A stretch of DNA of 64,000 nt from a virus, in IMG/VR virus record IMGVR_UViG_3300034170_000100, positions 1 through 64,000 of that record. One strand, given 5' to 3'. Positions 4,132 through 45,645 of the stretch are shown here, piece after piece. The notes below the pieces were generated by a model. The model had not been told where the DNA came from. It saw nothing but the letters and a program-made list of their open reading frames with translations, and ran no database searches. Numbering within the stretch: position 1 is the stretch's first letter; every line of letters begins with the position of its first letter. The position numbers and the translations under genes are program-made.

Positions 4132-5385
4132 TTACGACAAGCTGTAGTTTGAGTTCAGAATCAGAGCTGCAAGCTCGTCTCCGTCCATTTGGTCTTTGTA
4201 AGTAGGTGTCATACCGGTGATCTGCTCGTAGATGTCCTCCAATACGCGAGCACGGGCCAGGTCGGCCATGATTTGCGCGTAAGTGAGACGCATCCAGTTG
4301 CAGTTATTGGCGTGGCACTTGAATTCATCGTGAACGGTGACGATCTCAAAGGGTTCGCGTTCCAGCAACTGGTTTGCCAATGCAACCATCTGATTAATGT
4401 GCTTATCAGACATGAATTGCACATCTGCACGGGTAAGCTCGTTGAGCAAGCGAGCATCGGGCATTTCACAGCCACCCCACACAGCAATGAGCTGTTGTGC
4501 AAGGTTGGAGGCTTCGCCCAAGTCTTGTTCGACTTCTTCACCCATACGACGACCATCTTGCATCCCGCCCAAGATATATAGGGCAGTTTGCACTTTGGTT
4601 TGATCGTAGTTGCAGCGGCGCTCCATAGAACGGAGCAGGTAGGCGTCCAGTGAGTGAGTCACATTGGCCACTAGCTTCAGGTCAGTTTTGGTGCCTTCGT
4701 TGACGTAATACTCGTAGGTGAACGAGGCGCCGTCGAGTTCATCGACTTCTACACGCTCACCTTCCACCTTCTGCATCACCTTGATGCGGACGTTGAAGTT
4801 GTCCGGGCACACCCAACGGTGTTCCAGGGCAAAGGGTTGCCACGCCATGCGCAGGTCACCCAGCAGTTCAACAGCCTTCGGGGCCACAGCCACCAAGCCA
4901 GCATAGAACGCATCCAGTTCCTCGGTGTCAGTACCGAAGATCTCACGCGGCTTGGCTTGGGAGCCGTACAGCGTGGTCATGGTTGCGTCTTTGGCATCTT
5001 GCCGGGTGACGATCAAGTCGCCATCCAGCATATCGCCAGCGGCGTTGGTGACCATGGTGTAGGCATCGTTCCGGGAATCCGGGTCGATCAGGTTTGTGGC
5101 CAGGCACCCTTTATGGCACTTGGTGACCACGGACATGATGCTCATGCCCGAGCAGGTCGCGTCCAGGCCAACCATGTGGCCGATAGCCTCGCCCTTACAT
5201 GCGCGGTACAGGGCGTTCACAGCCTTGAGGTACAGCGGACGTTCTTTCTTACTGGTTTGGAGGAATAGCAGGCGGTTGAAGTTATCTTTAACCCACTGAA
5301 CTCTTTCCTCAAACAGCTTCTTGTCCATATCTGCTTGGTTTGCGATGTCAATGCACAGAAAATCAAAGCTAGTGTAAAATTTCAC
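4132..5385 (-). CDS. RNA polymerase II, catalytic subunit (N4 gp16-like, T7-type)
   Basis: Motif A LDATCSG, motif B RQDAKDATMTTLYGS, motif C VHDEF. Confidence 0.93.
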   Translation of the reverse strand: MKFYTSFDFLCIDIANQADMDKKLFEERVQWVKDNFNRLLFLQTSKKERPLYLKAVNALYRACKGEAIGHMVGLDATCSGMSIMSVVTKCHKGCLATNLIDPDSRNDAYTMVTNAAGDMLDGDLIVTRQDAKDATMTTLYGSQAKPREIFGTDTEELDAFYAGLVAVAPKAVELLGDLRMAWQPFALEHRWVCPDNFNVRIKVMQKVEGERVEVDELDGASFTYEYYVNEGTKTDLKLVANVTHSLDAYLLRSMERRCNYDQTKVQTALYILGGMQDGRRMGEEVEQDLGEASNLAQQLIAVWGGCEMPDARLLNELTRADVQFMSDKHINQMVALANQLLEREPFEIVTVHDEFKCHANNCNWMRLTYAQIMADLARARVLEDIYEQITGMTPTYKDQMDGDELAALILNSNYSLS

Positions 5386-30558: not shown

Positions 30559-33500
30559 ATGGCAAACGGCGATAACAACTTCGGTTTTGACGAATTGTTC
30601 CCTGCCGGCCTGCCTGCTGCAAAAGAAGGGGCGTTCAAGCCCCTTTTTGACCTTTCAGCGAAAGCTGAGTCGGTTGCGGCAGCTTCTGAAGAAAAGAAGC
30701 AGACTCTTATCGGGAAAATGGGTTATGACGCCGAAGATACCGTGGGCACCATCGCTAACTATGGTGCTCGCTTTGCGTCCGGTCTAAGTCGCCAGGTTCT
30801 TGGCAACTTGGCTACCCTGCCTCTCGATGTGATTTCTGGCCTGGCCCAAGGGTCCGTTCCTGAAGAACAAGTGCAAGCGTTCAACCGCATGCAAACCAAT
30901 CAAGCAAGTGACGCGGATATGGCTCTGTTGAACCAGACTGCACCACTTGATGACGGTATCCCGCAGACTTACCTTGAGCGCCTGCAAGGCACCCAGGGCA
31001 TTCAAAAAGTTGCGCAGAATGTCGGTGATTTCTTCGACATCTCTAGCATTGTGGACACCACCCGCTCCGAGCGACTGAGCCGCGATATTCGTGAAGCTGC
31101 TGGCGATGGTACTGCGCAGCTGCGCGGCGCCAAAGAAGCCTTCAACGAAGGCCAGTACCTGGAAGCTGCTGGTGAAGGTATCAAGGGTCTCGGCAATACT
31201 GTTGGCCCTGCTTTGCTTGCTGGTTTGCAGTCTCCTGTCGCTGCCGGTGAATACGTCGCAGAGAACATCCCTCAGATCGTTGCTGCTGCTTACAACCCAT
31301 CCATTCTGGTTGGTACCAACGCCGGCTACGGTTATGACACGTACCGTGAAGGTATCCGTGACTACGCCAAGAAGAACGATGGTCAACTTCCAAATGCCGA
31401 CGAGCGTGCGACCATGGGTCTGTTCGCTGCATCGGCTGCTGGTGCTGAAGTAGTTGGCGATGTTGGGCTGCTCAAAGGTATCCGCGCTGCGGGCACCGGC
31501 TCTGGCAACAAGGCAATGAGCGCTGCTATGGGCATTGGTGGGGCCGCTGCACGCGAAGGCGTGACTGAGGGCTACCAGACCTATGCTGAGAACCGTGCTC
31601 AACTGAAAGACACCACGTTGGAAGATATCGTCGAAGGAGCCACCATTGGTGCGCTGGTTGGCGGTAACTTTCAACTGGCTGCTGAAATTGGTGGGGGACC
31701 GAAAGGTGATGCTGCACCTGCCAGGAAAAACGCTGTAGAAAACGCATTTACTTCCGCTGTGGAATCCGGTGATGTTTCATCCCTGACCGACAGCACTTCT
31801 CCTGCATATAGCCCGGTGCGCGCTGTTGAAGCCCTGCATCAGATGAATCTGCAAGATGGTGCCAAGGCCGAGGAAAACCTCGCTCAAGTCGACCGTATTC
31901 AGCAAGACGTGACAGCAGACCTGTCTTCGATCCAAGCCCGTATGGAATCCACTACGCCTGAGCGTGTGGCCCAGATCGGTGCGCTTGTTCAACAAATGGA
32001 AGTCGCAGGTTCCGACCAAGCCGACATTGCTGAAATGCGCCAGATCCACGAAGCTGTATCGTCGTACACGCCTGCCCAACGTAAGGCTGATGAAACTCGT
32101 GCTGCTCAACTGGAAAGCCAGCTGAGTGAGATTCACACTGCTGCCGAGCGCATGCGCGTAGACGCCAGCCCTGAGCAGGCTGATGTTCAAGCGCTTGCAA
32201 CCGATGCACAGACAGGTGATCAACAAGCGGTTGACCGTTTGCTGACCCTGACCATGACCAATCCTGAAGCCGTCGACACCTCGGTCGCTGAGTCTCTTGC
32301 ACAGAGCGAAGCCTTGACCGAGCCGCAACGTAACGCTATGCGCCTCTTCACAGAAGCACAGGTGGCCGCTAATGCCTTGAAGGGCATGCGTGGTGTTAGT
32401 TCGGAAATTGCCACTGGTGGCGATGGTTTCAAGGGTATCTCGCAATATCGCAATGCAATCCGTATGGCCCTGGCCAATGGCAATGAAAGCGCCGCCCGCT
32501 CGCAAGTCGATGGCGTTCGTGCTTTTGCTGCTAGTCGTGTATCGAAACTGGAAGCTATCACCGCTGCTTATGAGCAAGTGAAGGGCACAGACAACTCGAT
32601 CAACATCGTGCGGAATGAGCAAGGCGAATGGGGTCCGACTTCCTTGAAGGGCACAGCTCTCAAGAAAGCCAAAGGTCTGGTAGTTGATGCCCGTTCCTTC
32701 AACCTACGCGACGGTGTAGCTACTGAAGCGGACGTGTTAGCAAAAACTGCTGATGCATTCGAAGCTATGGTAAATGCTGCTCCATCTCCTGTATCGCAAC
32801 CGGTTGTGCAACCGACTGCGGATCAGGGTGAAGTTGCCGCTGCAACCCCTAAAGCTGATGCAAACGCCCCAGTTGACGCAGCACCGGTAGCTCCGGTCGC
32901 TGAACAGACTGCTGCGCCTGCACCTGCTGAAGAAGTTGTGGCAAAGCCGGAAGATGCCCCGAGCGTGACCGAGAAGGCTCCTGCAAATGCAGGCCAGCTC
33001 ACCACAATCGGCGAGCGAACCGGTGAAGCGGTAACCGCGGACAACTACCGTTCTGTCAATCTGGTTTCCGAGCTGTTCGACCAAAAGGTCGGCTCTGACA
33101 CCGATGCAAGCGTTCGCCCGCTGGTAGCTGTCAAAGACTTCGCTTCGGCCATTAAAGCCGGTGAAGTAACCGTGCAAGACTTCCTTACCCAGGAAGGTCC
33201 ACTGCCGGCCCCACAAGTCACGGCACTCAATGCATTTTTCAACTTTGCTCAATATTCTGAGCAGGCAATCCGCAACCAGTTCAAGGTCACTGCTACTCGT
33301 GCCAAACGCCCGGACTTCTTCTATCGGGACATGGCGCAGTTCATGCAGAACGCGGACGGCCAAATTGACGAGAACTTGGCGACTGCCGTGTCTTACGGCA
33401 TGTTCTCGTGGGCAAACGAAAACGCAACTCAACTGCGTAACAGTCCTGAGTCGATCAACACTATTCTGATGCGCGACCTGGACGATGAAGTCTCCAATGC

Positions 33501-36500
33501 TGCGTATGCGGCGCTATCGGCTATCGGTACACGAGAGTCGGTCGTCGCTTCGCAGCTTGGTGGCCGCATCCTGCAAGCCCTGGGCCTCCAGGTAAATCAG
33601 AACGGTACTCGTGCTGAGCTGAGTAAACTGGAATCGTCCGTAGGCGAGCGAGCCATTGCTGCCATGGTCAAGTTGGGTTTGGTAGAACGTACCCAACTCG
33701 CGGACCAAAAACTGCAAGTGCTGATGGGCAAAACTGAATTTGATCCTAAACTGACCCACAACTTCGTTGTTGTGAAGTCGGTGACCGATGCTGAAGGCAA
33801 ACTGCAACCGGCACCGGTTGTGAAGCGCATTCGTGAGCGTTCGGTGGGTTCCCAGTCGGTTGTGTCCAAACTGTTTGCAGTAGAGGCTGCTGGTGTAGAG
33901 CCGAGCTACAAGCCGATCCCCTTCACCCAAGAATTCGCTAAACGTACTAGGCAAGCTGTGCCTAAGACCCTGGCCAAGATTTTGGACAAGGAAGGTGCAA
34001 AAGCTCACGTTGTTCGCCAGAACATGTGGCACGTTTGGGGCAAACTGAGCAAGCAGGCTCTCTATGAAATGGGCGGCGTGGTCTCGACCACCGATGCACC
34101 AACTCACGTTGAGAACCTGGCTTCACGCCAGGCGAAGAATGATGGCCTGATCCAACAAGTGGACAACTTCGACGCATTCGTTAACGCGATGACCGCCGAT
34201 AGCTCGACTGAGGGTCTGGACCAATCGTTGTACTTCGGCCGCTCCGTTTGGAAACCTCAACGTGTTGGTTTGACTGCAAACGTGATCAACCCGCAGACTT
34301 CGAAGATCCACCGTCACATGCTGGCCATGTCCGGTTGGAATGCTACCGTCAACCTCGACAACAAAGCCGAGATGGACAACTTCAAGCTCCGTGTGTTGGA
34401 AGCGTTCGGCAAGAAGACCGAAGCAACCACTACCGCCAAAGTGTTGGCCGGCTACGATGCTGTCGTGTCCAACCCTGCAATTCAGGCTGGTATCGACGCG
34501 CTGGCTGAAGTCCTGCGCGACAATGGCACCGTGAATGAAGCCGCTATCGTCGACGCTGTAAAAGCGGCCGGCGAGAAGTTCCATTCCTTCGATGCGCTGG
34601 TTGCCTTGGCTGAGCAACGTATTGCCGAGCAAGATGGCAAGCCTGCGTTCGAAACCGCGATGATGGGTGAAGTGGACGGTGTAACCAACGGCCCTATGCT
34701 GTCCCTGCTGATGCTGGGTGCCAAAGGCTTTGAAACTATGAACCAAGGTGGTTTCTTTGAGCTGGGTAGCCAGTTCACACAGTTCAACGACTACAAGGCC
34801 CAGGGCAACCTCGACCTGTACGAGTCGAACATCGCTCAGGCACTGAACCGCCTGCAAGGTCGCCAGCAAGGTCAGCTCGACGCTATGTCGGTCATCACTG
34901 GCCAACTGCAAACTGCCGAAGGCAACGTGACCTCTAAAGGCCGTAACATTATCAAGAAGCCGCTGACCGCCCTGATGTTCGGGTCCAACCCGACTACCGC
35001 GGTACAAGGCATGGCCGACGGCTTCATTGAAGCGATCTACAGCCGTATCGAAGATGCAGCTGCTGCCCGTGACAATGATGCAATCGCCCCCTTGTTTGGT
35101 GCTGTGAATACCCTGACTCGCTCGCCGAAGTTCGCTTTGGATGTGAAGATGGGCTATGAGCGTGCCCTGGAAACCAAGTTGACTACTCAACAGCAAGACG
35201 CGCTGAAACGCTCGTTCTATGAGTTGCTGGGTGAGCCGACTGAGAAAGCTCTGGCCGACAACTACGCTACCTTCATCGCTCGCCGGAACGTGATCAACCA
35301 GACAGCACAACTGTCGTTTGACCTGTTCAACGCTGTGCGTGATGGCGTGACTGAGTTCGTTGAGTCGACCAGCCAGGATGTGCCACGTAACAATGCTGGC
35401 GCCGCCATTCGCACGCTGACTAAAGAGCAACAGGCACAAGTAGATGCACTGATGGGCGACATGGCCCCGATCCTGCAAACTGCTATGTCTCAGGCATCGA
35501 AGCAACGTGAAGCTGGTATGTACATGGCCAAGTCGAAGCGTTCGCTCGATTCGTCTGCTGCCTACGAGCAAGAAGTCGCTTTCGGTGAAATGGTTAACAC
35601 CATTGCCCCGGACGGCTCCATGCAGGGTATCGGCTCGACTCGCCTGTCGTCTTCGCGCACTCAGGACATCGACCCAGGTGTAATGCCTTTCATTACCTCC
35701 ATTCACTCCAGCGACTCGGCTATTGCCTCGACTGTGTACGGAATGATGGAAGCACTGAACGTTCACGACGCCTTGGGCGTAGACCTGAACAATGTGGCCA
35801 AGGTTGGCCAGGAGCTGAACAAAGCGACGTTCAACACCATGCTGGAATACTCGTCCGCGACCGCAATGAGCAACATGCTCGATGAAGTCCTGGCCGGTGT
35901 ATCCAAAGTGATGCAGAACCCTGAGCTGGCTGCACGCATTCAGCCTAAGCTGCGCGAGAAGATGGTTGCCCGGGCTGAGAAGAAGCGTGGCTCTATTGCT
36001 GAGCAACTGACCGCTATTCGTGAGACTGCGACCCAGGCGGACACCGATAAGCTGAATATGCTGAGCAACATGCAGGCAATCGGCCAATACGCTACCGACG
36101 GCGGTTCTTACATCGTGACCGACGCTGACCGTGCAAAAGCACAGGCCAAGTTGGACGAAGTGGGTTCCACCTTCAATGCTGCGGCTGAATCTGTGGCTGA
36201 GCAACTGGACGCCGAAGCAAGCATCGTCTCAGCTGTGTATGTTGCAGGCAAGCAAGCTGAGCTGTCCAACACGTCGGTAACGACTCTGGCGCCGGCCACT
36301 TCTCTCAATACTCTGGCTTCGCTTGAGCAGACCCCGGCTGTTGTGCAGGTAATTGATTCCATGGTTTCGGGTAACCGAACTCTGGCCGATGCCCTGCAAG
36401 TTCTGCCTGAGCATCAAGCTGCCGAAGTAGTTGAAGCGGTAAATGGTGCAAGTGAAGCGAAATTGTCTGTATGGGGCCGCTTGGGCACCCCTGTCGTACA

Positions 36501-39500
36501 GTCCGACGTGAACTTGGTGCAACTGCTGGACACCACGGGCATGACTGCTCACAACCTCGTTGATTCGCTGGTTGAGTACGTACAGAACCCGTTCCAGAAG
36601 ACTGTGCTCAAGATGGCCAAGAAAGGCATCTCTGCTCGTATGCCGGTGACCTACATCACTGCCGAGACCGGACCAGAAGGCGCATTTGGTGAAGGCGTAG
36701 ACAAATCCCGCGGTTGGTACGCACAGCGTAACGACCAAGCCGGGTTGTTCATTAAATCCCCGGACTTCGTTGAATCGGGTATCACCCCTGAGCTGCTGAC
36801 CCATGAACTGGTGCATGCTGCTCTGGCAAACCTGATCGACGCAAACCAAGGTAAGAACACCCTGGCCGGCCGCGCTGTAGCGGATCTGGAAGTGCTGCGT
36901 ACCCAAGCTGAAGACTTCCTCGCCAACAATGGCGCCCTGTCTGCTAAGTACCGCAACGCCACGTCGAACGTGCATGAGCTGGTCTCCTGGGGCCTGTCCA
37001 ACCAAGACTTCCAACGTGAAGTGCTGGGCCAGGTATCGGTGCCACAGAAAGACCGATCGATCCTCGACGGCCTGAAGGGTTTCATCAAGTCGCTGACTGA
37101 AATGCTGTTTGGTGCCAACACTCCGTCGGCAAACAACGGTATGGCCAACTTGATCGCCAACTCTGCTGTTCTGTTCCGTGAAGCGGCCCAGGCGCAAGAG
37201 AAGCGTGCGACTGCAACCCACAAGTACGAAGACGCCATCGACCACATCAACGCTATGACTGCTGAGCAGGTGTTTGACGCTCTGGCTACCGTAGGCAACC
37301 ACAAGACTGATGTGGTCCATGCTGAGTACCTGCGTGACCTGTTGGCGCAGACTGTTAACCCGGTCTACGGCCCATACGGCGCATTCAAAGAGGCAGCATC
37401 GGCAAACCGTGCGCTGACCCCGCTGGATGTGTTCCTGAAAGCGGTGAGCACCGGCCAAACTCCGTTCAGCTCCCAGGCAACAGCCGGCCAGTTCATCCTG
37501 TCCCAGCAAGAAGCATTTGTGCTGGAATCGGTAGAAGCGACCATTTCCCACGCCATGGAAACGAAAGAAACTCTGTTCGTTCGCCAGGGTCTGGAAAACC
37601 TGTTCAAGGAGGCACGTTCGAAGCTGAACCCGGACGGGCGCAACTTGCACGCTGGCGATTGGGCAACCGCAAGCCAGAATGAGAAGGATGTCGCTAAAGC
37701 GAAGTGGGACTTCCTGTTCCGCCCACAAGTGAGCGCAACTGGTCGCAACAATTACTTGGCACGCTTTGCTGCCCTGGGCCTGGCCTCGGCCGAAGTCCGT
37801 AATGCACTTGGTTTCTCGACCAACAACTTCGAGACCCCGTTGAAGGGTCTGCCGATCACCAGCAAGCTGACTGAGTTGTTCCGTCGGGCAATGACAGTCT
37901 TTGCCCGCCTGGCAACCAAAGTCATCCCTGGCACCTCGGGCAACGTCGCACTGAGCACTCTGGTAGAGCAACTGGTGGACATCGAGGCCAAGCGTAAAGC
38001 ACGCATGGACCAGGAGAAGGTGAACCACTTTGACCAGCTCGAAACTGCGCTGGCCGGTGTGGGTGACTCCATCCTGGAAAAAGCTGATGCACTAGGCCGC
38101 GCCGGGTTCATTCGCAAGTCGAAGATCCCGTTTGTCGCCGGTCTCGGCGCTGTGGTATCCACCGCTGCCGGTAACCGCCTGGATGCGGTACTGAATGCCA
38201 TCACAATGATGCGCGATCAGTCTCAAAAGAGCCGGCACGGTGTGGTGATGGGCATGCTGACCGAATGGCGCGGTGTGTACGATTCTCGCCGTTTGGCTGC
38301 TGAATTGTTCAAAGGTGCCAAGGCCAACGAGCAACAGCGCAAATCGGTTATCGAGACCACTGCTGCATCGGTAAACGAAGCATTTGCAAACCAGGGCCAA
38401 GATTTGACCCAGGTGCAACGTGATGCGCTGACTCGTGTGTTTCTGCGGACCAATGCCCAGGCAATCGCCGCTGCTCGTGGTGTCGACGGACTGCGCGACC
38501 TCATGGAAGACCCTGCTGCAATGGCGGCATACCGTTCAGACTTGGAAGCACAGGTAACTGCGCTGACTCCGAACTATCTGTACATGATCAGCCAGGCCAA
38601 AGACTTGGCGCACCACAAGGTGGTGGGCGGCTCGACTTCGGCCAACCTGATGCTGTCGACCGGCAACATTGCGGCCATGTTCGGCACCAAGAAGAAAGTT
38701 GCTGCCAATGCCGCGGTTATCACGCTGCTTGAGCAACTAGTGGGCGTATACGGCCTGGACTACAGCGGTGATGTCGATCTGCGCAATGCTCGTGAAGTTC
38801 TGCGCACTGAGATGAATCGTACCGACGGCAACGGCGTGGACTACATGCTGAAGCTGCACACTGGTCTCCAGGCCAAAGCAACTGCTGACCTGTTCAAAGG
38901 CACCGAAGCGCTGCAACAGACCGGCTATGTGGCGGAGATCCACGACAACAAGATCGAAGTCTTGCTGGTAGCCAAGAGCGACGTAGCTGCACACGAGCGC
39001 GCCGGCTACATCGTGGGCACTGCCCTGCAAATGGACCCGAATGTGAAAGGTCTGAAAACCACAGGCCGTGTACTGATGACTCGCCGTAGCGCCGGTCAAA
39101 CTGCGCTGCTTACTGGTGCCATGTCTTTCACCGGCAACAATGCCAAGGGTTCTAGCCCGGTCACCGAAGCTGTCAACATGATGGCCGGCAACCAGACCTC
39201 TGCCGCTGTACGTCAGCAGATTGCACAGCAGAAGGCCCAGGCAGTGGCTGATTTGTTCCACCGCCCATTGTCTTACGACCCACGCAAGGCACAAGCTGGG
39301 CACATGGTCCCCACCCTGGCGCCTGACGGCCGAATAGCTGACTACCGTCACATGATGACCGAACAAAACCGCGATGTCCTTTTGGACCGCGATAATTCGA
39401 TGGATCAAGTGCTGGGAGTCATGGCTGGTCAAATTGCTGACAAAGTGTCCACTGTTCAACAGAACACTGACGTTGTTCGCTCGATGTATGATCAATACCG

Positions 39501-40695
39501 CGCTGACTACACTTCGCGCCCTTCTTCGTACATTCGTGTGTCCGCGGACAGCAAAGACAAAGGTTTGGCCGAGACTTATCGCCTGTTGCCAGAAAGCACC
39601 AAGCAAGAGATCCGCAAGGTATGGAAAGACGACGCAATGTATGTGCCGGCTGACCAACTCGATCTGATCTTTGGCTATCGCAAGTTCAGCCTGACCAATT
39701 CGTTTGACGAATTGCCAGGTGACCGCAACATGTTTGAAAAGGTGCTGGTTGCTGCTACTTCTGCGATCTACGGCGAGAAAGCTGCGCTTCGCGTAGGTCA
39801 AGCTGAAGACATCATGCAAACCCTCGTTAAAGAGATGAAAGACATTCTTGTTGTTAAGAACATCTTCACTCTGGCGGGCAACATCACGTCGAACATGACA
39901 TTACTGGCTTGGGAAGGTGTTCCATTGCGGAAGGCCGCGGCTTCTCACGCTATTGCTATCAAAGGTGCAATCGATTTCCGTAAGGATTCGAAACGCCTGC
40001 TGCAATTGCAACAAGCTGTAGAAATTGGGTACTTCGCTGATAACACTGCTGCTGGGGCAGAGATTCTGGAAATTCAGGATCGTTTGGCACGTAACCCGAT
40101 CAAACCATTGGTGGATGCAGGCTTGATGCCTACTATCGTGGAAGACGTTGAAGTTGATGACGACCGCTACACCTACAAAGCTCACTTGGCCCGTAAGGTG
40201 GAGAAGTTCACTGATAAGGTTCCAGCTTGGATGCGTACTGTCGGTAAACAGGTCTACATGACCCATGACACCGCCACGTATAAATTCTTGAGCCAAACAA
40301 CTCAGTTGTCTGACTTGGTGGCACGTTATGCGCTATTTGAGCACTTGACTACCCGCACGAAAGATCCTCTGAGTGTTGCTGATGCTTTGCACCAAGCTGA
40401 GGACAGTTTCGTAAACTACGACCTGCCTTCGCACCGCACACTGCAATATCTGAACGATATGGGCATTGTGATGTTTACCAAGTACTACTTGCGTATTCAG
40501 AAGGTGATCATGCGTCTTGTGCGTGAGAAACCTGTACGTGGTCTGATGTTGGCAGCAGTTGGTCATATGTGGGCCGGTCTGGATTCCATCATGGATTCCA
40601 GCTGGCTCAACAAGATTGGCAACAATCCGCTGCAAGATGGAGCACTTGGTTACCTCGGCTCGTTGAAAGAGCTGCCAGCAATCAAGTTCCTGTAA
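30559..40695 (+). CDS. virion-encapsidated RNA polymerase (N4 gp50-like)
   Basis: 3378 aa, no Cys seen, motif A EVDGVTNGP, motif B RNIIKKPLTALMFGS, motif C NVHDA. Confidence 0.96.
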   Translation: MANGDNNFGFDELFPAGLPAAKEGAFKPLFDLSAKAESVAAASEEKKQTLIGKMGYDAEDTVGTIANYGARFASGLSRQVLGNLATLPLDVISGLAQGSVPEEQVQAFNRMQTNQASDADMALLNQTAPLDDGIPQTYLERLQGTQGIQKVAQNVGDFFDISSIVDTTRSERLSRDIREAAGDGTAQLRGAKEAFNEGQYLEAAGEGIKGLGNTVGPALLAGLQSPVAAGEYVAENIPQIVAAAYNPSILVGTNAGYGYDTYREGIRDYAKKNDGQLPNADERATMGLFAASAAGAEVVGDVGLLKGIRAAGTGSGNKAMSAAMGIGGAAAREGVTEGYQTYAENRAQLKDTTLEDIVEGATIGALVGGNFQLAAEIGGGPKGDAAPARKNAVENAFTSAVESGDVSSLTDSTSPAYSPVRAVEALHQMNLQDGAKAEENLAQVDRIQQDVTADLSSIQARMESTTPERVAQIGALVQQMEVAGSDQADIAEMRQIHEAVSSYTPAQRKADETRAAQLESQLSEIHTAAERMRVDASPEQADVQALATDAQTGDQQAVDRLLTLTMTNPEAVDTSVAESLAQSEALTEPQRNAMRLFTEAQVAANALKGMRGVSSEIATGGDGFKGISQYRNAIRMALANGNESAARSQVDGVRAFAASRVSKLEAITAAYEQVKGTDNSINIVRNEQGEWGPTSLKGTALKKAKGLVVDARSFNLRDGVATEADVLAKTADAFEAMVNAAPSPVSQPVVQPTADQGEVAAATPKADANAPVDAAPVAPVAEQTAAPAPAEEVVAKPEDAPSVTEKAPANAGQLTTIGERTGEAVTADNYRSVNLVSELFDQKVGSDTDASVRPLVAVKDFASAIKAGEVTVQDFLTQEGPLPAPQVTALNAFFNFAQYSEQAIRNQFKVTATRAKRPDFFYRDMAQFMQNADGQIDENLATAVSYGMFSWANENATQLRNSPESINTILMRDLDDEVSNAAYAALSAIGTRESVVASQLGGRILQALGLQVNQNGTRAELSKLESSVGERAIAAMVKLGLVERTQLADQKLQVLMGKTEFDPKLTHNFVVVKSVTDAEGKLQPAPVVKRIRERSVGSQSVVSKLFAVEAAGVEPSYKPIPFTQEFAKRTRQAVPKTLAKILDKEGAKAHVVRQNMWHVWGKLSKQALYEMGGVVSTTDAPTHVENLASRQAKNDGLIQQVDNFDAFVNAMTADSSTEGLDQSLYFGRSVWKPQRVGLTANVINPQTSKIHRHMLAMSGWNATVNLDNKAEMDNFKLRVLEAFGKKTEATTTAKVLAGYDAVVSNPAIQAGIDALAEVLRDNGTVNEAAIVDAVKAAGEKFHSFDALVALAEQRIAEQDGKPAFETAMMGEVDGVTNGPMLSLLMLGAKGFETMNQGGFFELGSQFTQFNDYKAQGNLDLYESNIAQALNRLQGRQQGQLDAMSVITGQLQTAEGNVTSKGRNIIKKPLTALMFGSNPTTAVQGMADGFIEAIYSRIEDAAAARDNDAIAPLFGAVNTLTRSPKFALDVKMGYERALETKLTTQQQDALKRSFYELLGEPTEKALADNYATFIARRNVINQTAQLSFDLFNAVRDGVTEFVESTSQDVPRNNAGAAIRTLTKEQQAQVDALMGDMAPILQTAMSQASKQREAGMYMAKSKRSLDSSAAYEQEVAFGEMVNTIAPDGSMQGIGSTRLSSSRTQDIDPGVMPFITSIHSSDSAIASTVYGMMEALNVHDALGVDLNNVAKVGQELNKATFNTMLEYSSATAMSNMLDEVLAGVSKVMQNPELAARIQPKLREKMVARAEKKRGSIAEQLTAIRETATQADTDKLNMLSNMQAIGQYATDGGSYIVTDADRAKAQAKLDEVGSTFNAAAESVAEQLDAEASIVSAVYVAGKQAELSNTSVTTLAPATSLNTLASLEQTPAVVQVIDSMVSGNRTLADALQVLPEHQAAEVVEAVNGASEAKLSVWGRLGTPVVQSDVNLVQLLDTTGMTAHNLVDSLVEYVQNPFQKTVLKMAKKGISARMPVTYITAETGPEGAFGEGVDKSRGWYAQRNDQAGLFIKSPDFVESGITPELLTHELVHAALANLIDANQGKNTLAGRAVADLEVLRTQAEDFLANNGALSAKYRNATSNVHELVSWGLSNQDFQREVLGQVSVPQKDRSILDGLKGFIKSLTEMLFGANTPSANNGMANLIANSAVLFREAAQAQEKRATATHKYEDAIDHINAMTAEQVFDALATVGNHKTDVVHAEYLRDLLAQTVNPVYGPYGAFKEAASANRALTPLDVFLKAVSTGQTPFSSQATAGQFILSQQEAFVLESVEATISHAMETKETLFVRQGLENLFKEARSKLNPDGRNLHAGDWATASQNEKDVAKAKWDFLFRPQVSATGRNNYLARFAALGLASAEVRNALGFSTNNFETPLKGLPITSKLTELFRRAMTVFARLATKVIPGTSGNVALSTLVEQLVDIEAKRKARMDQEKVNHFDQLETALAGVGDSILEKADALGRAGFIRKSKIPFVAGLGAVVSTAAGNRLDAVLNAITMMRDQSQKSRHGVVMGMLTEWRGVYDSRRLAAELFKGAKANEQQRKSVIETTAASVNEAFANQGQDLTQVQRDALTRVFLRTNAQAIAAARGVDGLRDLMEDPAAMAAYRSDLEAQVTALTPNYLYMISQAKDLAHHKVVGGSTSANLMLSTGNIAAMFGTKKKVAANAAVITLLEQLVGVYGLDYSGDVDLRNAREVLRTEMNRTDGNGVDYMLKLHTGLQAKATADLFKGTEALQQTGYVAEIHDNKIEVLLVAKSDVAAHERAGYIVGTALQMDPNVKGLKTTGRVLMTRRSAGQTALLTGAMSFTGNNAKGSSPVTEAVNMMAGNQTSAAVRQQIAQQKAQAVADLFHRPLSYDPRKAQAGHMVPTLAPDGRIADYRHMMTEQNRDVLLDRDNSMDQVLGVMAGQIADKVSTVQQNTDVVRSMYDQYRADYTSRPSSYIRVSADSKDKGLAETYRLLPESTKQEIRKVWKDDAMYVPADQLDLIFGYRKFSLTNSFDELPGDRNMFEKVLVAATSAIYGEKAALRVGQAEDIMQTLVKEMKDILVVKNIFTLAGNITSNMTLLAWEGVPLRKAAASHAIAIKGAIDFRKDSKRLLQLQQAVEIGYFADNTAAGAEILEIQDRLARNPIKPLVDAGLMPTIVEDVEVDDDRYTYKAHLARKVEKFTDKVPAWMRTVGKQVYMTHDTATYKFLSQTTQLSDLVARYALFEHLTTRTKDPLSVADALHQAEDSFVNYDLPSHRTLQYLNDMGIVMFTKYYLRIQKVIMRLVREKPVRGLMLAAVGHMWAGLDSIMDSSWLNKIGNNPLQDGALGYLGSLKELPAIKFL

Positions 40696-40701
40696 CAAGG
40701 A

Positions 40702-40781
40702 CGGGAGGGGCAGGATTCGAACCTGCGGTGACGAAAGTCACGACCTTATGGGAATGCATTAAACCGCTCTGCCACCCTCCC
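40702..40781 (-). tRNA. tRNA-Ser-like (class II) gene with truncated anticodon arm; pseudo-tRNA or tRNA mimic
   Basis: acceptor GGGAGGG/CCCTCCC, D arm GCAGAGCGGTTTAATGC, variable arm GTGAC-TTTC-GTCAC, T arm GCAGG-TTCGAAT-CCTGC, discriminator G; no regular anticodon arm. Confidence 0.75.
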
Positions 40782-40794
40782 ATGTAAAACAAAC

Positions 40795-40819
40795 AGCCCC
40801 CTTACTTAGGGGGCTTTTT
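40795..40819 (+). terminator. bidirectional terminator
   Basis: AGCCCCCT-TACTT-AGGGGGCT followed by TTTT. Confidence 0.7.
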
Positions 40820-41011
40820 CATTGCGTCAATCACGAATTCCTTGATCGCTGCCCAAACCAGGAAGAGTATGAAGGCAAGCACCAACATCACTGCCAAGAC
40901 AAAGCAGACGATCTTGAATGCGTAGCCCAACACTACAATCGTAGTGAGGAAGGCGATCAAGGCACCTAATCCGATACAGACCGAGAAAAGGCGCCTGATC
41001 CCCCGGATCAA
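40802..41011 (-). CDS. small two-TM membrane protein
   Basis: hydrophobic 69-aa ORF, ATGA coupling. Confidence 0.7.
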   Translation of the reverse strand: MIRGIRRLFSVCIGLGALIAFLTTIVVLGYAFKIVCFVLAVMLVLAFILFLVWAAIKEFVIDAMKKPPK

Positions 41012-41349
41012 TGCTTGGTCGGGCGACGGATGATCATAGCTTCGCCGACTGCCTTACCGTTCAGGTAAATCAGATCGTCGTCACCGATAGTCATACCTTC
41101 CGGCAACTGGGCGTTGATTTCAGCACGGGCCGCGGCCATAGGGTCGACCGAACCTTCGTGTTTGCTGGCCGTGCCTTTATGGCCTGGAGCCTTTGCTTCT
41201 TCAACTGGTTTGAACAGATCAGCTGCGGCATTGGCCAGGATATTGGCTGCTTCCTGCTGATTGACGTTGTACAGGGTTGCTGATGCCTCTGCGAGCAAAT
41301 TGGCAGCGGTTGCGGCTGCAAGCAGAGCTTCATTACATTTTCGGCACAT
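41008..41349 (-). CDS. hypothetical protein
   Basis: AAGGA RBS before MCRKCNE. Confidence 0.7.
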   Translation of the reverse strand: MCRKCNEALLAAATAANLLAEASATLYNVNQQEAANILANAAADLFKPVEEAKAPGHKGTASKHEGSVDPMAAARAEINAQLPEGMTIGDDDLIYLNGKAVGEAMIIRRPTKH

Positions 41350-41369
41350 ACTGCGTTCCTTCTGTTGGT

Positions 41370-42250
41370 GGGTGTATTGGTAGTGCAACTGCCGAGCTTC
41401 CCATGGCAACACTCATCGCTGAGTGGCAGTTGCACGACCAAAACACCCTCCATGTGTAAACCTCTCCGAAGAGTCAGCTTACGGCGGTTGATGTTTCGGG
41501 TGAGTTACCAACTCACAAGGTTATAGGTTATTACGCGAGCGTTACGGGCTCGCAAGCACCGGACTTCGGAGAACGATGCTTTATGTCTTTGAATCGGTAA
41601 CCCCACTGTGGGCCTGCAAAGCCAGGGGACGCATAGTGCAGCTTACTCGCTGCGCGTGGATGTGTAACACACAAACAAACAGTATCTCGATGTAACATAC
41701 TCACGAATGAGTATTGGAGAGCATCTGGGCATTGTTTCTGTATCTGCCCTCTAAGTGCGGGCGTTTCTGTAGCCCATCCCAGATGCTTTCCAATACCGAT
41801 TCTGAACTCGATATTGGGTTCGATCTTATGTTCGAACAGACATAACCAGAATCGTTCTGGTGTAGACGGGCCGTTATATCCCGGCTCAAGGATAGGATCG
41901 GGGGCCTCGCAGTAGTTGCGAGATCTTAGCTTTTATCCGGACTAAGCCGGCCCCAATTTGACGGTACACCCAAGAATCGAACTTGGATACCGGGAGCGAC
42001 CCGATATTCACACATAATCACCAGACCTGCTGATGTCACGTCAATTCATGGAGCTACCATGTTTATCAGTGACGGCAGTTGTGTGTATGCACCAAAACTT
42101 CAAAATTCCGGCTCGTTGTTTTCCAAACAGTTTTCGCGGTAACAAACGACGTGCTGTTTGCCAACTTCAGTTGGTTTTGGTGTTCAGTACCGATCACACC
42201 ATTATTCGTTCTTTTTATTCCCGGAGTACGAATGACACAGTCCCCTCCGT
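41370..42250 (-). ncRNA. candidate large structured ncRNA or ncRNA cluster
   Basis: ~880 nt with no convincing ORF and more than a dozen stems, including 22/24 and 18/19 bp inverted repeats; strand inferred from flanking genes and the embedded T-loop. Confidence 0.55.
41958..42044 (-). ncRNA. tRNA-like element (T arm plus long variable-type arm)
   Basis: CCAAG-TTCGATT-CTTGG T arm, ATATCGGG/CCCGGTAT hairpin, closing TTGACG/CGTCAA stem. Confidence 0.55.
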
Positions 42251-42255
42251 GTTGC

Positions 42256-42459
42256 TTAATCGAGCGTGGTGCGAATTTCACTGCGAGGAGTCCATCCGCT
42301 GCTGGATTGAACCATGCAACCGATAGACCCGCTGAACTTCACAACACGCTCTGTCTGGTAGCCGTACCAACTGCACTTGCCCCATCCAAAGCCCCAACCG
42401 ATACCGATCACGACAATGAAGAAGGCCAGCACAATTAATGTGGCTTTCAGGTGAGCCAC
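42256..42459 (-). CDS. small membrane-anchored protein
   Basis: N-terminal TM helix, two Cys. Confidence 0.65.
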   Translation of the reverse strand: MAHLKATLIVLAFFIVVIGIGWGFGWGKCSWYGYQTERVVKFSGSIGCMVQSSSGWTPRSEIRTTLD

Positions 42460-42903
42460 TTAGGCACCCTTGCGGATTTCGAAGTGTTCTTCGCTCAGGC
42501 GGTAGCCCAGCTCGCGCGCGATCTCTTCGATCACTTTGCGTTCTTCCGGCTCGACTTCGCCGTCAGCCTTGGCGATTGCCAGGACGTTCAGCACCACGTC
42601 TTCGACGTGTTCGTCGTTGCCTTGGATGTCGCGGATTTCGCGCAGGATCTTGCTGCGGCCGACCAGGAAGTCACCTTCCAACAGATCGGTGAAACGACGA
42701 ATCGTCTTACCGATGTCGGCGCCGAAGTGCTTGAGGTTTTCATTACCGGCGATCAGCTTTTCGAGCTTGGTCAGCTCGTCTTTCTCGATGTCGCCATCAG
42801 CTGCGGAGACCAATAGACCGCCGCCGACGATTGCTTCCATCAGGTCGCGGTTTTCGACTTTCTTGGCACCGCGGAACAGCTTGCCAGCGAGTTTACTGAA
42901 CAT
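42460..42903 (-). CDS. TerB-family (tellurite resistance-like) protein
   Basis: duplicated AADGDIEKDE and AKADGEVEPEE motifs. Confidence 0.85.
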   Translation of the reverse strand: MFSKLAGKLFRGAKKVENRDLMEAIVGGGLLVSAADGDIEKDELTKLEKLIAGNENLKHFGADIGKTIRRFTDLLEGDFLVGRSKILREIRDIQGNDEHVEDVVLNVLAIAKADGEVEPEERKVIEEIARELGYRLSEEHFEIRKGA

Positions 42904-43363
42904 GATCATTTTCCTGGATTGGCAGGTCATTGCCTGGGGGCCGGGTTGACGCTGCGACAATTTTGGTACGCATGTCACGGCCAACGGCCGCGCCTAATGC
43001 CCACTCTTGATGATTGAAGGTGTCGTCTTCAGGGAAGGCGTTCACCAACTGGCCTGGGTCGGGCACCGTAAAGGTTTGCTCTAAACCAAGGTTGTAAGCG
43101 GCAGAGGTGACTGACGCTACTGGCGCCTGCGAAGTGCCTGTCAGCTCGAACTCGGTCATGTAGCCAACATAGGCCACGTTGATCAAGGTCGAGCCTTCAG
43201 GGATCTGTCGGCTGGCACGGGCACCATTCAAAATGGGGATCGTGACAGCACGCGACTTCGACCAGACAAATGCACTCAGAGGGACGTAAGCCCCCGGCTG
43301 AGGCACCGACCAGACTGCCAGGAACCAATGCCGCTTTTTATTGCGGTCATCGGCCTGGGTCAT
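42893..43363 (-). CDS. hypothetical protein
   Basis: ORF in middle-gene run. Confidence 0.7.
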   Translation of the reverse strand: MTQADDRNKKRHWFLAVWSVPQPGAYVPLSAFVWSKSRAVTIPILNGARASRQIPEGSTLINVAYVGYMTEFELTGTSQAPVASVTSAAYNLGLEQTFTVPDPGQLVNAFPEDDTFNHQEWALGAAVGRDMRTKIVAASTRPPGNDLPIQENDHVQ

Positions 43364-43365
43364 GA

Positions 43366-43701
43366 TCAGTCGAACAGGTTGTCGGCATCGGAACCGGCAA
43401 CATCGGCGCCAACTTCGGCAGCGGTTTCGACCTGGGCTTCGGTTTGAACTTCAGCCGGGGTTTCGACAACAGGCGCCAGAGCTTCAGTTACCGGGGCCAC
43501 GACGGTCGCTTTGGCAACAACAGGTGCTGCTTCGGCCGGGGCCTTCGGCTCGGTGTCCAGTTCGCACAGCAGTTCTTTCGAGCCGCGCTTGAAAGCGAAA
43601 TCGGCGGTGACTTTGGACGGATCGAACGCAGTCATGCCACGAGTGGCCAGGAATTCGCACAGAGCCAGGGTTACGTCAGCGTGGGAGAGAGTCAGTTTCA
43701 T
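43366..43701 (-). CDS. N4 gp47-like small acidic protein
   Basis: position after the resolvase, acidic low-complexity tail ending NLFD. Confidence 0.65.
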   Translation of the reverse strand: MKLTLSHADVTLALCEFLATRGMTAFDPSKVTADFAFKRGSKELLCELDTEPKAPAEAAPVVAKATVVAPVTEALAPVVETPAEVQTEAQVETAAEVGADVAGSDADNLFD

Positions 43702-44261
43702 TGTTTCGTTCCTCGGTAAAATTGGATGATTTGTTTGTAAATTTCGGTCTGGAGACCGGCATAGATGGCGCCCAATGCGTCAGCCATGTGTTCTGCATCG
43801 CACAATAGGATTTCTCCGTTGGATTTCCGTGGCCAGGGGGCCTCGGGGTGTTTCTTTATCGCCCACTCGATCATTTGCTTTTTGGTGGCCTTTCGGTCAC
43901 CTACAGCCGCAAGTTTGACTTCGTTGGGCGTTACTTCGACGAATTGAGAATTGGCGCGGAGACTGCCCAAAACCCCAATGCAGATACCAGAACATAGCGA
44001 GGCGCGGGCGCTTTGACTCCCAACGGGAATTTCGGCGAAGGTAAGGCTCGCTGCTGTGAAGGGAGCTACGCCCTCATATAACTGGTTTGCCGTGCGCAGA
44101 TCTTGTGAGTTCTGCCGTACCTGCTTTCCTTCGAGCGGTTCAGCCCGCACAACCCGGAGGGTTTTGATGGTCAGTTGCCCGGTGTCGGTGTCAATCGTTC
44201 CACCGGCTATGCCCCAGTTACGAGAACTTGGATCGTGTCCCGCTACACTGAGGCGAGCCAT
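43698..44261 (-). CDS. RuvC-like Holliday junction resolvase (N4 gp46-like)
   Basis: GHDPSSRNWG, AEIP, TPNEVK and EHMADA motifs. Confidence 0.85.
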   Translation of the reverse strand: MARLSVAGHDPSSRNWGIAGGTIDTDTGQLTIKTLRVVRAEPLEGKQVRQNSQDLRTANQLYEGVAPFTAASLTFAEIPVGSQSARASLCSGICIGVLGSLRANSQFVEVTPNEVKLAAVGDRKATKKQMIEWAIKKHPEAPWPRKSNGEILLCDAEHMADALGAIYAGLQTEIYKQIIQFYRGTKQ

Positions 44262-44812
44262 TACACGCCAGCGCGGCTAAGGCGGCGCTGGAGCACAGCA
44301 ACGTAGTCTTTCATCAGACCGTGTTGCGTGCGAAGGTCGGCGATTTCATCGTCCGAAAGTTCCAGAGCTTCCAGAGCACCTGCATCGACTTGAACAAGAA
44401 ACTCGCTCAGGCCCATCAGACGGGAAGCCACTTGGTACATTTCAGTCAGCACACGCTGCACATGATCAGGCAGCTCGCGCTGTTCCTGAGTCAGTGGGCG
44501 ATTGCCGCGATGGATGTCTTCGGCCAACAGGAAACCGGCGAACGGCCACAGTTGGTTCCGGGCATCTTCGTAGGCGAATTTCTTCGCCAACTCTTCGCTG
44601 TAGTTCTCGGCCGAGACCGCGCCCAGGTTTTTGCCCAGGACGGTGAAACCGTTGTGCAGGGTGATTTGGCACAGCATGCCCAGGCCGCCGATCTTGAGCA
44701 GAGACTGCTCTTTGATCATGGCGTCCAGAGCGGCAGGGGTGACCCGTGGCGCCTTGGTAAGGCCGAGGGCCTGGATCTGTGCTTCGGTTGCAGCTTCGTC
44801 TTTGTTAGACAT
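44261..44812 (-). CDS. Phage_gp49_66 (Acb4-type) plus crAss001_48/Y16Q (Sequestin-type) fusion, putative immune-signal sponge
   Basis: N-terminal APRVT..LHNGFTVLG..VSAENY..QLWPFAGFLL; C-terminal HVQRVLTE..LSEFL..LRTQHGLMKDYVAVLQRRL. Confidence 0.7.
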   Translation of the reverse strand: MSNKDEAATEAQIQALGLTKAPRVTPAALDAMIKEQSLLKIGGLGMLCQITLHNGFTVLGKNLGAVSAENYSEELAKKFAYEDARNQLWPFAGFLLAEDIHRGNRPLTQEQRELPDHVQRVLTEMYQVASRLMGLSEFLVQVDAGALEALELSDDEIADLRTQHGLMKDYVAVLQRRLSRAGV

Positions 44813-44856
44813 GTACAGCTCCTGAGAAGGGCCGGTTACCCGACCCATGGGGGTGT

Positions 44857-45645
44857 TCAGTCGAATAGGGAGTCGACAGCTTCCCCACCGGCAGTGGTAG
44901 GCGTGCCAGCAGGGCCACCGGTACCAGCAGGTGCGACCAGCTTGTCAGCTTTGACTTTGTTCACGACTTTGCCGGTGTTGGCTTCAACCCATTTCGGGTA
45001 GAAGTCGGCGGCGACAGGTTGGCCTTTCTGCTTGGCTTCACGCAGCTCGGCGATGGTCGCATTGTTGTCGGCGAAGAAGATCTTGCCAATCTGGTTTTCG
45101 AACTTGGTGTCCGGTACGCCAGGCTCGCCAGCTTTGTGAACTGGCAGGTATTCGTTGCCGACCTTGATGGTCTTGTTCACTTCGTGCTTTTCCAGGCCCA
45201 AGATGAACTTTTTGCCGATCAGCTCGACCGCCATTGGCACTTCGGTTGGAACGTCTTTCTTCTGCTCGTGGTCGCGCAGTTTCAGGATTTTCGTTTCGAA
45301 AGCCAGAGCGTTCAGCTCTTTCTTCGCGCAGAACATCGAGATCGCGTTGACGTTGTTGAAACCAGGCAGGTAGGACTTCTTACCGTCGCGCTCGTAGTAC
45401 GGCTTGTTGCCTTTGGCATCGCCGGAGGTTACCCACTCGGTGAACTTGAACTTACGACCGTCGTCGCCTTGGACTTCGAAAGACATACTACCGGCGCCGC
45501 CTTTGGACTTGCCAGCGTATGCAGCCAGGATGGTTACAGGGTAAGCACCACCGTCCCAGACGAAACCACCACCGAGACGGTCACTATCCGTTTCGATCTG
45601 TTCGTTCGTGGTATTAACGGTGTTGGCAAAAGGGTTCAGACTCAT
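44857..45645 (-). CDS. single-stranded DNA-binding protein (N4 gp45-like)
   Basis: DRLGGG, SKGGA, YLPGF motifs, acidic SLFD C-terminus, synteny. Confidence 0.88.
   Translation of the reverse strand: MSLNPFANTVNTTNEQIETDSDRLGGGFVWDGGAYPVTILAAYAGKSKGGAGSMSFEVQGDDGRKFKFTEWVTSGDAKGNKPYYERDGKKSYLPGFNNVNAISMFCAKKELNALAFETKILKLRDHEQKKDVPTEVPMAVELIGKKFILGLEKHEVNKTIKVGNEYLPVHKAGEPGVPDTKFENQIGKIFFADNNATIAELREAKQKGQPVAADFYPKWVEANTGKVVNKVKADKLVAPAGTGGPAGTPTTAGGEAVDSLFD

Follow-up and report, generated by a model that had tools for sequence, protein, structure and literature searches.

Gene setting of the locus

The DNA analyzed here (the window) comprised the first 64,000 nucleotides (1-64000) of a virus record that is 74,794 bp long and has direct terminal repeats. 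The phage is N4-like (Schitoviridae), and its closest cultured relative is Pseudomonas phage phCDa. The virion RNA polymerase (vRNAP) gene (30559-40695, plus strand, 3378 aa) showed 80.5% DNA identity to its counterpart in phCDa (Schitoviridae, Shizishanvirus). To the right of this gene all genes were on the minus strand, in the order SSB, gp49_66/crAss001_48 protein, RuvC-like resolvase, two uncharacterized proteins, TerB, 67-aa membrane protein, gap, p113, p69, terminator, and tRNA gene. The features around the gap were as follows:

44857-45645, minus strand: SSB gene
42460-42984, minus strand: TerB gene (PF05099)
42256-42459, minus strand: gene of the 67-aa membrane protein
41350-42255, minus strand: non-coding gap between the 67-aa membrane protein gene and p113, from the ORF list and the sequence
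41008-41349, minus strand: p113 gene (113 aa), with its ATG at 41349 preceded by AGAAGGAA
40802-41011, minus strand: p69 gene, encoding a 69-aa membrane protein
40795-40815: candidate bidirectional terminator hairpin at the end of the island, with T runs flanking both sides
40699-40782, minus strand: tRNA gene, called tRNA-Leu(AAG) by ARAGORN and scoring 41.6 bits with the Rfam tRNA model

The ORFs in the gap were all short and without conservation, no Pfam or PHROG gene lay within it, and the corresponding gap in phCDa is likewise unannotated. A promoter scan of 40600-42600 found no sigma-70-like promoters. The TerB gene (PF05099) and, for the putative sponge gene, a gp49_66/crAss001_48 gene were confirmed upstream, where the initial annotation had placed them. 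The ORF at 44261-44848 (minus strand) joins Pfam Phage_gp49_66 (residues 36-110) and crAss001_48 (residues 127-192).

At the other end, the hairpin at 40795-40815 fits a bidirectional terminator separating the p69 gene from the convergent vRNAP gene, and the tRNA gene lies beyond it. ARAGORN reported no tRNA in L013, a relative 96% identical to the window, and the DNA contigs of two public runs omitted exactly 40690-40783; close relatives thus differ by insertion or deletion of this tRNA gene. Two other relatives (L003 and L005) carried tRNA-Arg(TCT) at this place.

A conserved core of covarying helices

Relatives of the locus were collected by exact-word scans of IMG/VR, which returned nine contigs, phCDa included. 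A protein profile of p113 recovered the same nine IMG/VR contigs as the RNA words, and among GenBank phages only phCDa was found. A looser gapped pattern gave 101 IMG/VR loci, none of which carried the RNA according to nhmmer beyond the known relatives. The core was detected by nhmmer in all ten relatives and was absent elsewhere among 108 loci. Alignment of the relatives (A3) and RNAalifold defined the following features on the minus strand:

41365-41893, minus strand: conserved structured core with 19 predicted helices, 529 nt in the window
41711-41796, minus strand: long helix (helix 6, with 5 compensatory pairs) whose tip carries two ACAGAAAC motifs (41734-41741 and 41763-41770)
41810-41845, minus strand: stretch of about 34 nt including the hairpin GUUCGA-ACAUAAGA-UCGAAC (alignments A2 and A3)

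The core formed the 3' part of the gap on the minus strand and was 530-590 nt long in the relatives. The conserved unit was about 0.55 kb (41365-41893), not the whole 0.9-kb stretch.

The consensus of nine sequences comprised 136 pairs in 19 helices, with 94.2% of the pair cells paired. Pairs changed on both sides numbered 43 of 136, compared with 22.2 ± 2.8 in column shuffles, and none of the 500 shuffles reached 43. Slid controls, which preserve the relatedness of the sequences and in which the partners were moved by 1-3 columns, gave 6-14 such pairs. Moreover, the variable columns were spread evenly over the three codon phases without 3-base periodicity, and most indels across the relatives were not multiples of three. 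These results indicated that the pairing is under selection and that the region is non-coding, in agreement with the initial annotation, which had seen no credible ORF in the 0.9-kb stretch. The power of the covariation analysis was limited, since the family is narrow, with about five independent lineages in one genus-level clade.

Judged by these pair counts, the covariation check that had been proposed for the locus was positive, and so was the comparison of folding with shuffled sequences. The whole gap folded at z = -7.2 (plus strand) and -5.0 (minus strand), and the core alone at z = -8.3 and -6.6, respectively. Both were well beyond shuffles, and the dense base pairing first noticed in this stretch was borne out on both strands.

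The individual stems listed at the outset fared differently. Most recurred in the family consensus and several were compensated, while others were window-specific, lineage-specific or at chance level. The stems 41370-41393/41425-41448, GTGAGTT/AACTCAC, GCAGC/GCTGC, ATACTCA-CGAA-TGAGTAT and 41711-41729/41778-41796 were in the consensus, each with at least one compensatory pair. Compensation of GCGAGC/GCTCGC was seen by eye in comparison with phCDa, as the family alignment misregisters this arm for the window and phCDa. The stem CCGGCT/AGCCGG enclosing CTCGCA/TGCGAG is real but restricted to the window and L013, its 96%-identical twin. The stem CGATTCTG/CAGAATCG was window-specific, the family consensus giving those bases other partners, and CACCAAAAC/GTTTTGGTG and CAAACAG/CTGTTTG lay in a block that folded no better than shuffles (z = 0.1).

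The strand was assessed in several ways. The consensus energy was -149.6 on the minus strand and -121.2 on the plus strand, with 43 and 30 compensatory pairs, respectively. The 81 pairs predicted on both strands contained 23 G-U cells compared with 8 A-C cells. For single sequences, 8 of 9 relatives had the lower MFE on the minus strand, with a difference of up to 38 kcal/mol. The exception was the core of the window itself, with -209.5 kcal/mol on the plus strand and -196.1 kcal/mol on the minus strand; the long-range pairings that favored its plus strand were absent from L006 and phCDa, both read by eye, and were discarded. The minus strand, which is also that of the neighboring genes, is the better-supported strand.

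The predicted structure consisted almost entirely of local hairpins. Its sole long-range helix has 3 bp and clashes with the alternative pairing of the 3' domain. Such a predicted architecture gives no support to a single compact large RNA. A kissing contact between a CCGAAG loop and a CUUCGG tip was also considered and was rejected, as no supporting covariation appeared when alignment A3 was read.

The stretch at 41810-41845 was identical across the relatives, except that L013, which was found by another pattern, differed slightly. Part of this identity reflects the choice of sequences, as the initial search was made with a 22-mer taken from that stretch. The 22-mer scan also returned a metagenome contig (L014) in which a bacterial gyrB-ibpA leader shares the invariant hairpin, and which was dismissed as a chance match. 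At 4990-5040 of that contig, in the leader of a small heat-shock gene, the hairpin reads GUUCGAACAUAAGAUCGAAC, with the common UAGUCGGU just upstream; the match exceeds the searched 22-mer in length and is probably due to chance. A 20-mer scan of 185,579 genomes gave one Amycolatopsis site, about the number expected by chance, and was dropped. The ACAGAAAC motif had three sites in the 64-kb window, two of them in the helix 41711-41796.

Flanking domains and counterparts in other N4-like phages

The end of the core nearest to p113 comprised two features on the minus strand:

41365-41521, minus strand: 3' domain (helices 15-19), consisting of two hairpins and then a long terminal hairpin (41366-41452) with a three-way-junction cap
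41490-41499, minus strand: upstream competitor strand CCGAAACAUC, predicted to pair with 41438-41447 and so to displace the 3' arm of the terminal hairpin

The 3' domain was the most sequence-conserved part, with a mean column identity of 90% (alignment A5). Between subclades it showed 80-85% nucleotide identity by blastn, whereas p113, at only 35-45% protein identity, was conserved far less than this RNA domain beside it. In the lower stem of the terminal hairpin, 41438-41447 pairs with 41370-41380. The alternative pairing consists of ten consecutive pairs (A3 columns 478-487 with 531-540) and was kept in 8 of 9 sequences, the exception being L009 with one U-U. Column 537, the sole variable column of the shared arm, covaried with both of its partners, columns 481 and 602. 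In these alignments, the last domain has two conserved, mutually exclusive predicted pairings.

In each of the ten genomes p113 adjoined the RNA, and 14 nt separated the last helix from the p113 start codon. The N terminus of the protein contains an invariant MCxxC, and no Pfam or PHROG match was found for it. In a large protein collection p113 fell into 32 clusters, none with a Pfam domain and several on 72-78-kb contigs. In the AlphaFold model, whose mean pLDDT of 66 is too low to search for similar folds, a disordered linker lies between a helical hairpin and a small C-terminal sheet.

Upstream of the core, the 5' part of the gap (360 nt in the window and 230-500 nt in the relatives) was a mosaic of small shuffled modules according to the whole-gap alignment. 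In the window it contained the following:

42103-42248, minus strand: block M1, the conserved trailer of the upstream operon (81-92% identity by blastn)
41956-42102, minus strand: cloverleaf-like tRNA mimic (z = -2.1), only in the window and L013
41894-41955, minus strand: two-hairpin module (z = -1.7), only in the window and L013

Blocks M1 or M1', M2 and M3, together with lineage-specific pieces, varied in combination and order among the relatives. M1 was common to the window, L013, L008, L002, L005 and L003 and was replaced by a different block in the other relatives; its folding was no better than that of shuffles (z = 0.1). M2, which has two ACAGAAAC motifs around a hairpin, folded at z = -3.5. 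It was located at the tip of the core helix in the window, L008 and L009, and upstream of the core in L006, L002, L005 and L003. That the 5' modules recombine as units among relatives is as expected of separate small RNAs. The initial annotation had left a choice between one large RNA and several pieces, and these separately shuffled modules fit several pieces in the 5' third.

The tRNA-like element noticed inside the stretch corresponds to 41956-42102. As a fold it is real, with an acceptor-like stem of 7 bp, a tail G-UCA, and a middle arm of 8 bp whose loop has 5 nt in place of the 7 nt of an anticodon loop. The T arm, CCAAG-UUCGAUU-CUUGG, is canonical, but a long insert replaces the D region. 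The element was not called a tRNA by ARAGORN or by the Rfam tRNA model (RF00005) at E <= 10, and its occurrence was restricted to the window and L013. In phCDa (L007), at about 1850-1895 and just before the core, GGGGGTTCGATTCCCTC followed by GGCATCCGCCA resembles a tRNA T arm with a CCA end; no tRNA was called there.

A comparable gap lies between orf69 and orf70 of phage LUZ7, where heavy late-infection transcription and three putative small RNAs (sRNA1-3) were reported (Putzeys et al. 2022, PMC9163698). Two of these arise from a mapped start site and one is probably processed; the cluster spans about 400 nt with transcripts of <250 nt, compared with the 900-nt gap here (PMC9163698). The window and LUZ7 hold the same gene order, SSB, gp46-like resolvase, small genes, gap, small genes, p69/gp72 and convergent vRNAP, with two to three small genes following the SSB/resolvase block before the vRNAP gene. 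Furthermore, p69 of the window is homologous to LUZ7 gp72, the last small membrane gene (E = 3e-6). Because the gene order matches and this last gene is homologous, the LUZ7 gap is truly equivalent in position to the present one.

Strong folding was also seen for the LUZ7 gap (14645-15042 of L108; z = -6.15). Just before the ribosome-binding site of the next gene, it closes with a long hairpin that carries two small hairpins as a cap, which is the same layout as that of the 3' end of the present RNA. No sequence match between the LUZ7 gap and the present RNA was found by nhmmer, and no homologue of p113 was detected in LUZ7. A covariance model of the 3' domain (R1) scored 12.5 bits at L108:14886-15006, on the right strand and matching the gap end, with E of about 0.09 over 47 kb and 0.001 within the gap, which is not significant on its own; by its position this hit is suggestive. 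The corresponding junction holds a gap of 430 nt in PA26 and three tRNA genes in Meara. LUZ7, PA26 and Meara together mark this junction as a recurrent home of non-coding RNA in Pseudomonas N4-like phages.

A peat metatranscriptome (X10) contains this phage letter for letter as assembled contigs. Two stretches are covered, 42112-44222 at depth 147 and 40823-41362 at depth 55, and sequencing-adapter letters occur at positions 42112, 41362 and 40823. The interval separating the two stretches is represented only by a 220-nt piece, 41783-42002 (depth 7), and the depth in the vRNAP gene is 2-5; such contigs cannot show the ends, strand or level of an RNA, and the uncovered part proves nothing. As a lead only, such coverage would be consistent with cleavage at the edges of the structured part, or with its late and low expression.

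Interpretation of the locus

With the Rfam models, cmscan was run on the window at gathering scores and on 40500-43000 at E <= 10, and it returned only the tRNA gene and chance-level hits. The same scan of six relatives at E <= 1 gave nothing in the gap, and that of LUZ7 gave only tRNA genes and chance-level hits. RNase P RNA, tmRNA, 6S, SRP and Y-RNA-like RNAs had no Rfam hits at E <= 10, and ARAGORN found no tmRNA. The initial annotation had also suggested kinship with GOLLD and ROOL. A covariance-model match is the sole testable criterion for membership, and no Rfam match appeared even at E <= 10; the RNA is therefore not GOLLD (RF01998) or ROOL (RF03087), and this suggestion was given up. 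Its broader proposal of a structured non-coding RNA locus beside tRNA genes held, given the conserved pairing, the non-coding character and the nearby tRNA gene. The RNA family is new, as no Rfam match and no description of this RNA in the literature were found, and its general kind, a phage structured RNA beside tRNA genes, is known.

We consider it somewhat more probable than an even chance that the locus specifies a clade-specific structured non-coding RNA, made from the minus strand, as are the genes of the adjoining replication block, and acting in its own right. Its core would be a chain of about 19 helices over about 0.55 kb, preceded by exchangeable small structured modules, one of them a putative tRNA mimic in this phage. 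With p113 co-inherited 14 nt after the core, the whole locus would form an RNA/tRNA island placed where the early/middle genes meet the vRNAP gene head-on. The RNA would be transcribed through or within the island and freed by endonuclease cuts at its borders; the freed RNA may then act as RNA, most likely by binding a protein, with p113 as the first candidate partner. The alternative pairings of the last domain may set the folding of the junction with the p113 message. Transcription and release are suggested by the analogy with LUZ7 and by the place in an RNA/tRNA island. That the core is expressed as RNA we infer from LUZ7, a phage of another genus without clear sequence homology at the locus.

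A cis-acting leader or processing cassette would account just as well for the constant distance to p113 and for the conservation of the alternative pairing. The structure would then be the long 5' leader of the p113-p69 message, in which a switch between the two pairings hides or frees the stretch before the ribosome-binding site, or directs a cut, and so sets the amount and timing of p113. The constant 14 nt between the RNA end and the p113 start in all ten genomes, the unbroken association of RNA and p113, the mutually exclusive 3' pairings sharing one covarying column, and the highest conservation in the part closest to p113 all speak for such a leader. However, about 19 conserved helices over 0.55 kb far exceed the needs of known leaders, no known riboswitch, T-box or leader family was matched in Rfam, and the ribosome-binding site itself lies in neither pairing. 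In addition, the LUZ7 counterpart gives discrete small RNAs with a start site of their own (PMC9163698). We regard the leader as a possible explanation, but a clearly less probable one than an RNA acting in its own right.

A role of the locus at the DNA level appears improbable. In this case the hairpins would arise in DNA that is single-stranded or supercoiled, and their role would be in replication, such as that of an origin or a priming site. Extruded DNA hairpins do serve N4-like phages as early promoters, and in LUZ7 they act as middle promoters as well (PMC9163698); the locus is at a switch of gene orientation, and DNA tolerates G-T wobbles too. On the other hand, the known hairpin promoters are single 4-7-bp stems with 3-4-nt loops rather than a 0.55-kb array, and the published spacing of 13-15 nt to a plausible start is found for none of the helices here. 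The strand asymmetry agrees with the direction in which the neighboring genes are transcribed, and the LUZ7 counterpart is transcribed.

Even less credit can be given to a ribozyme or intron-like RNA that has escaped recognition and excises itself from the operon transcript. In size and number of helices it would be similar to group I/II introns and RNase P RNA, and a hairpin near the 3' end, GCAAGCU...GGUUUGC, contains an AGC paired through a G-U wobble, presumably comparable to group II domain V. Against this, no intron, including groups I and II, RNase P or small-ribozyme model matched in Rfam at E <= 10, and the flanking genes are complete and independent, each having a separate stop codon, ribosome-binding site and start codon. 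The relatives differ in the upstream gene, and no joined form was found among the contigs of public runs. Least credible of all are decaying, functionless remnants of a former tRNA gene cluster, as the T-arm-like pieces in the window and phCDa and the real tRNA genes nearby might suggest, since the compensatory changes and the invariant 34-nt stretch point to purifying selection that still acts on the core, none of its helices resembles a tRNA arm set, and the covariation largely refutes this origin.

A structured RNA acting in its own right also has analogues among phage and host RNAs. The stable RNAs C and D of phage T4 are structured, about 120-140 nt each, and lie in a tRNA gene cluster; their function is unexplained, and they are released by tRNA-type processing. 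The present RNA resembles them as a structured RNA among phage tRNA genes, and processing at its tRNA-like junctions may be similar. With CrcZ and RsmY/RsmZ, the protein-sponge RNAs of Pseudomonas, it shares a multi-hairpin form, and the two-fold ACAGAAAC module resembles the display of a loop motif; it differs from them in having no motif enrichment and no Rfam match. For an Hfq/Crc sponge, 0-2 AAnAAnAA sites were found per locus, and any enrichment of A-R-N repeats did not go beyond about two-fold. For an RsmA sponge, GGA motifs were at or below shuffle expectation. Both sponge ideas were dropped as unsupported, and the decoy role suggested in the initial annotation likewise gained no support.

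A bolder and rather unlikely version of the interpretation would place the core in a class of its own among large ornate phage RNAs, working jointly with p113 as a ribonucleoprotein or a giant sensor. In the sensor version, the 3' switch could read out the state of the domains upstream. Few conserved non-coding RNAs exceed about 500 nt in length, and the classes RNase P, introns, OLE, GOLLD and ROOL are all mechanistically interesting. Like GOLLD and ROOL, the present RNA is a phage-carried, many-helix non-coding RNA of more than 500 nt beside tRNA genes. Unlike them, it occurs only in one narrow clade of Gram-negative N4-like phages, its predicted fold is mostly a chain of local hairpins, and pseudoknots or higher-order assembly are not in evidence.

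The narrow clade limits the reach of the finding. The RNA is present in a cultured phage, phCDa, whose host is Pseudomonas fluorescens CS1, and the phage family is amenable to start-site mapping by ONT-cappable-seq. The neighboring p113 and the two-state 3' domain offer direct experimental handles. The locus also connects the small-RNA cluster of LUZ7, which is expressed and unexplained, to a structure with clear evolutionary support. If the bolder version is true, the N4-like Pseudomonas phages would gain a late-stage RNA-based function without a described counterpart, for example the takeover of a host RNA-handling enzyme, or the evasion of defence by means of tRNA-like add-ons.
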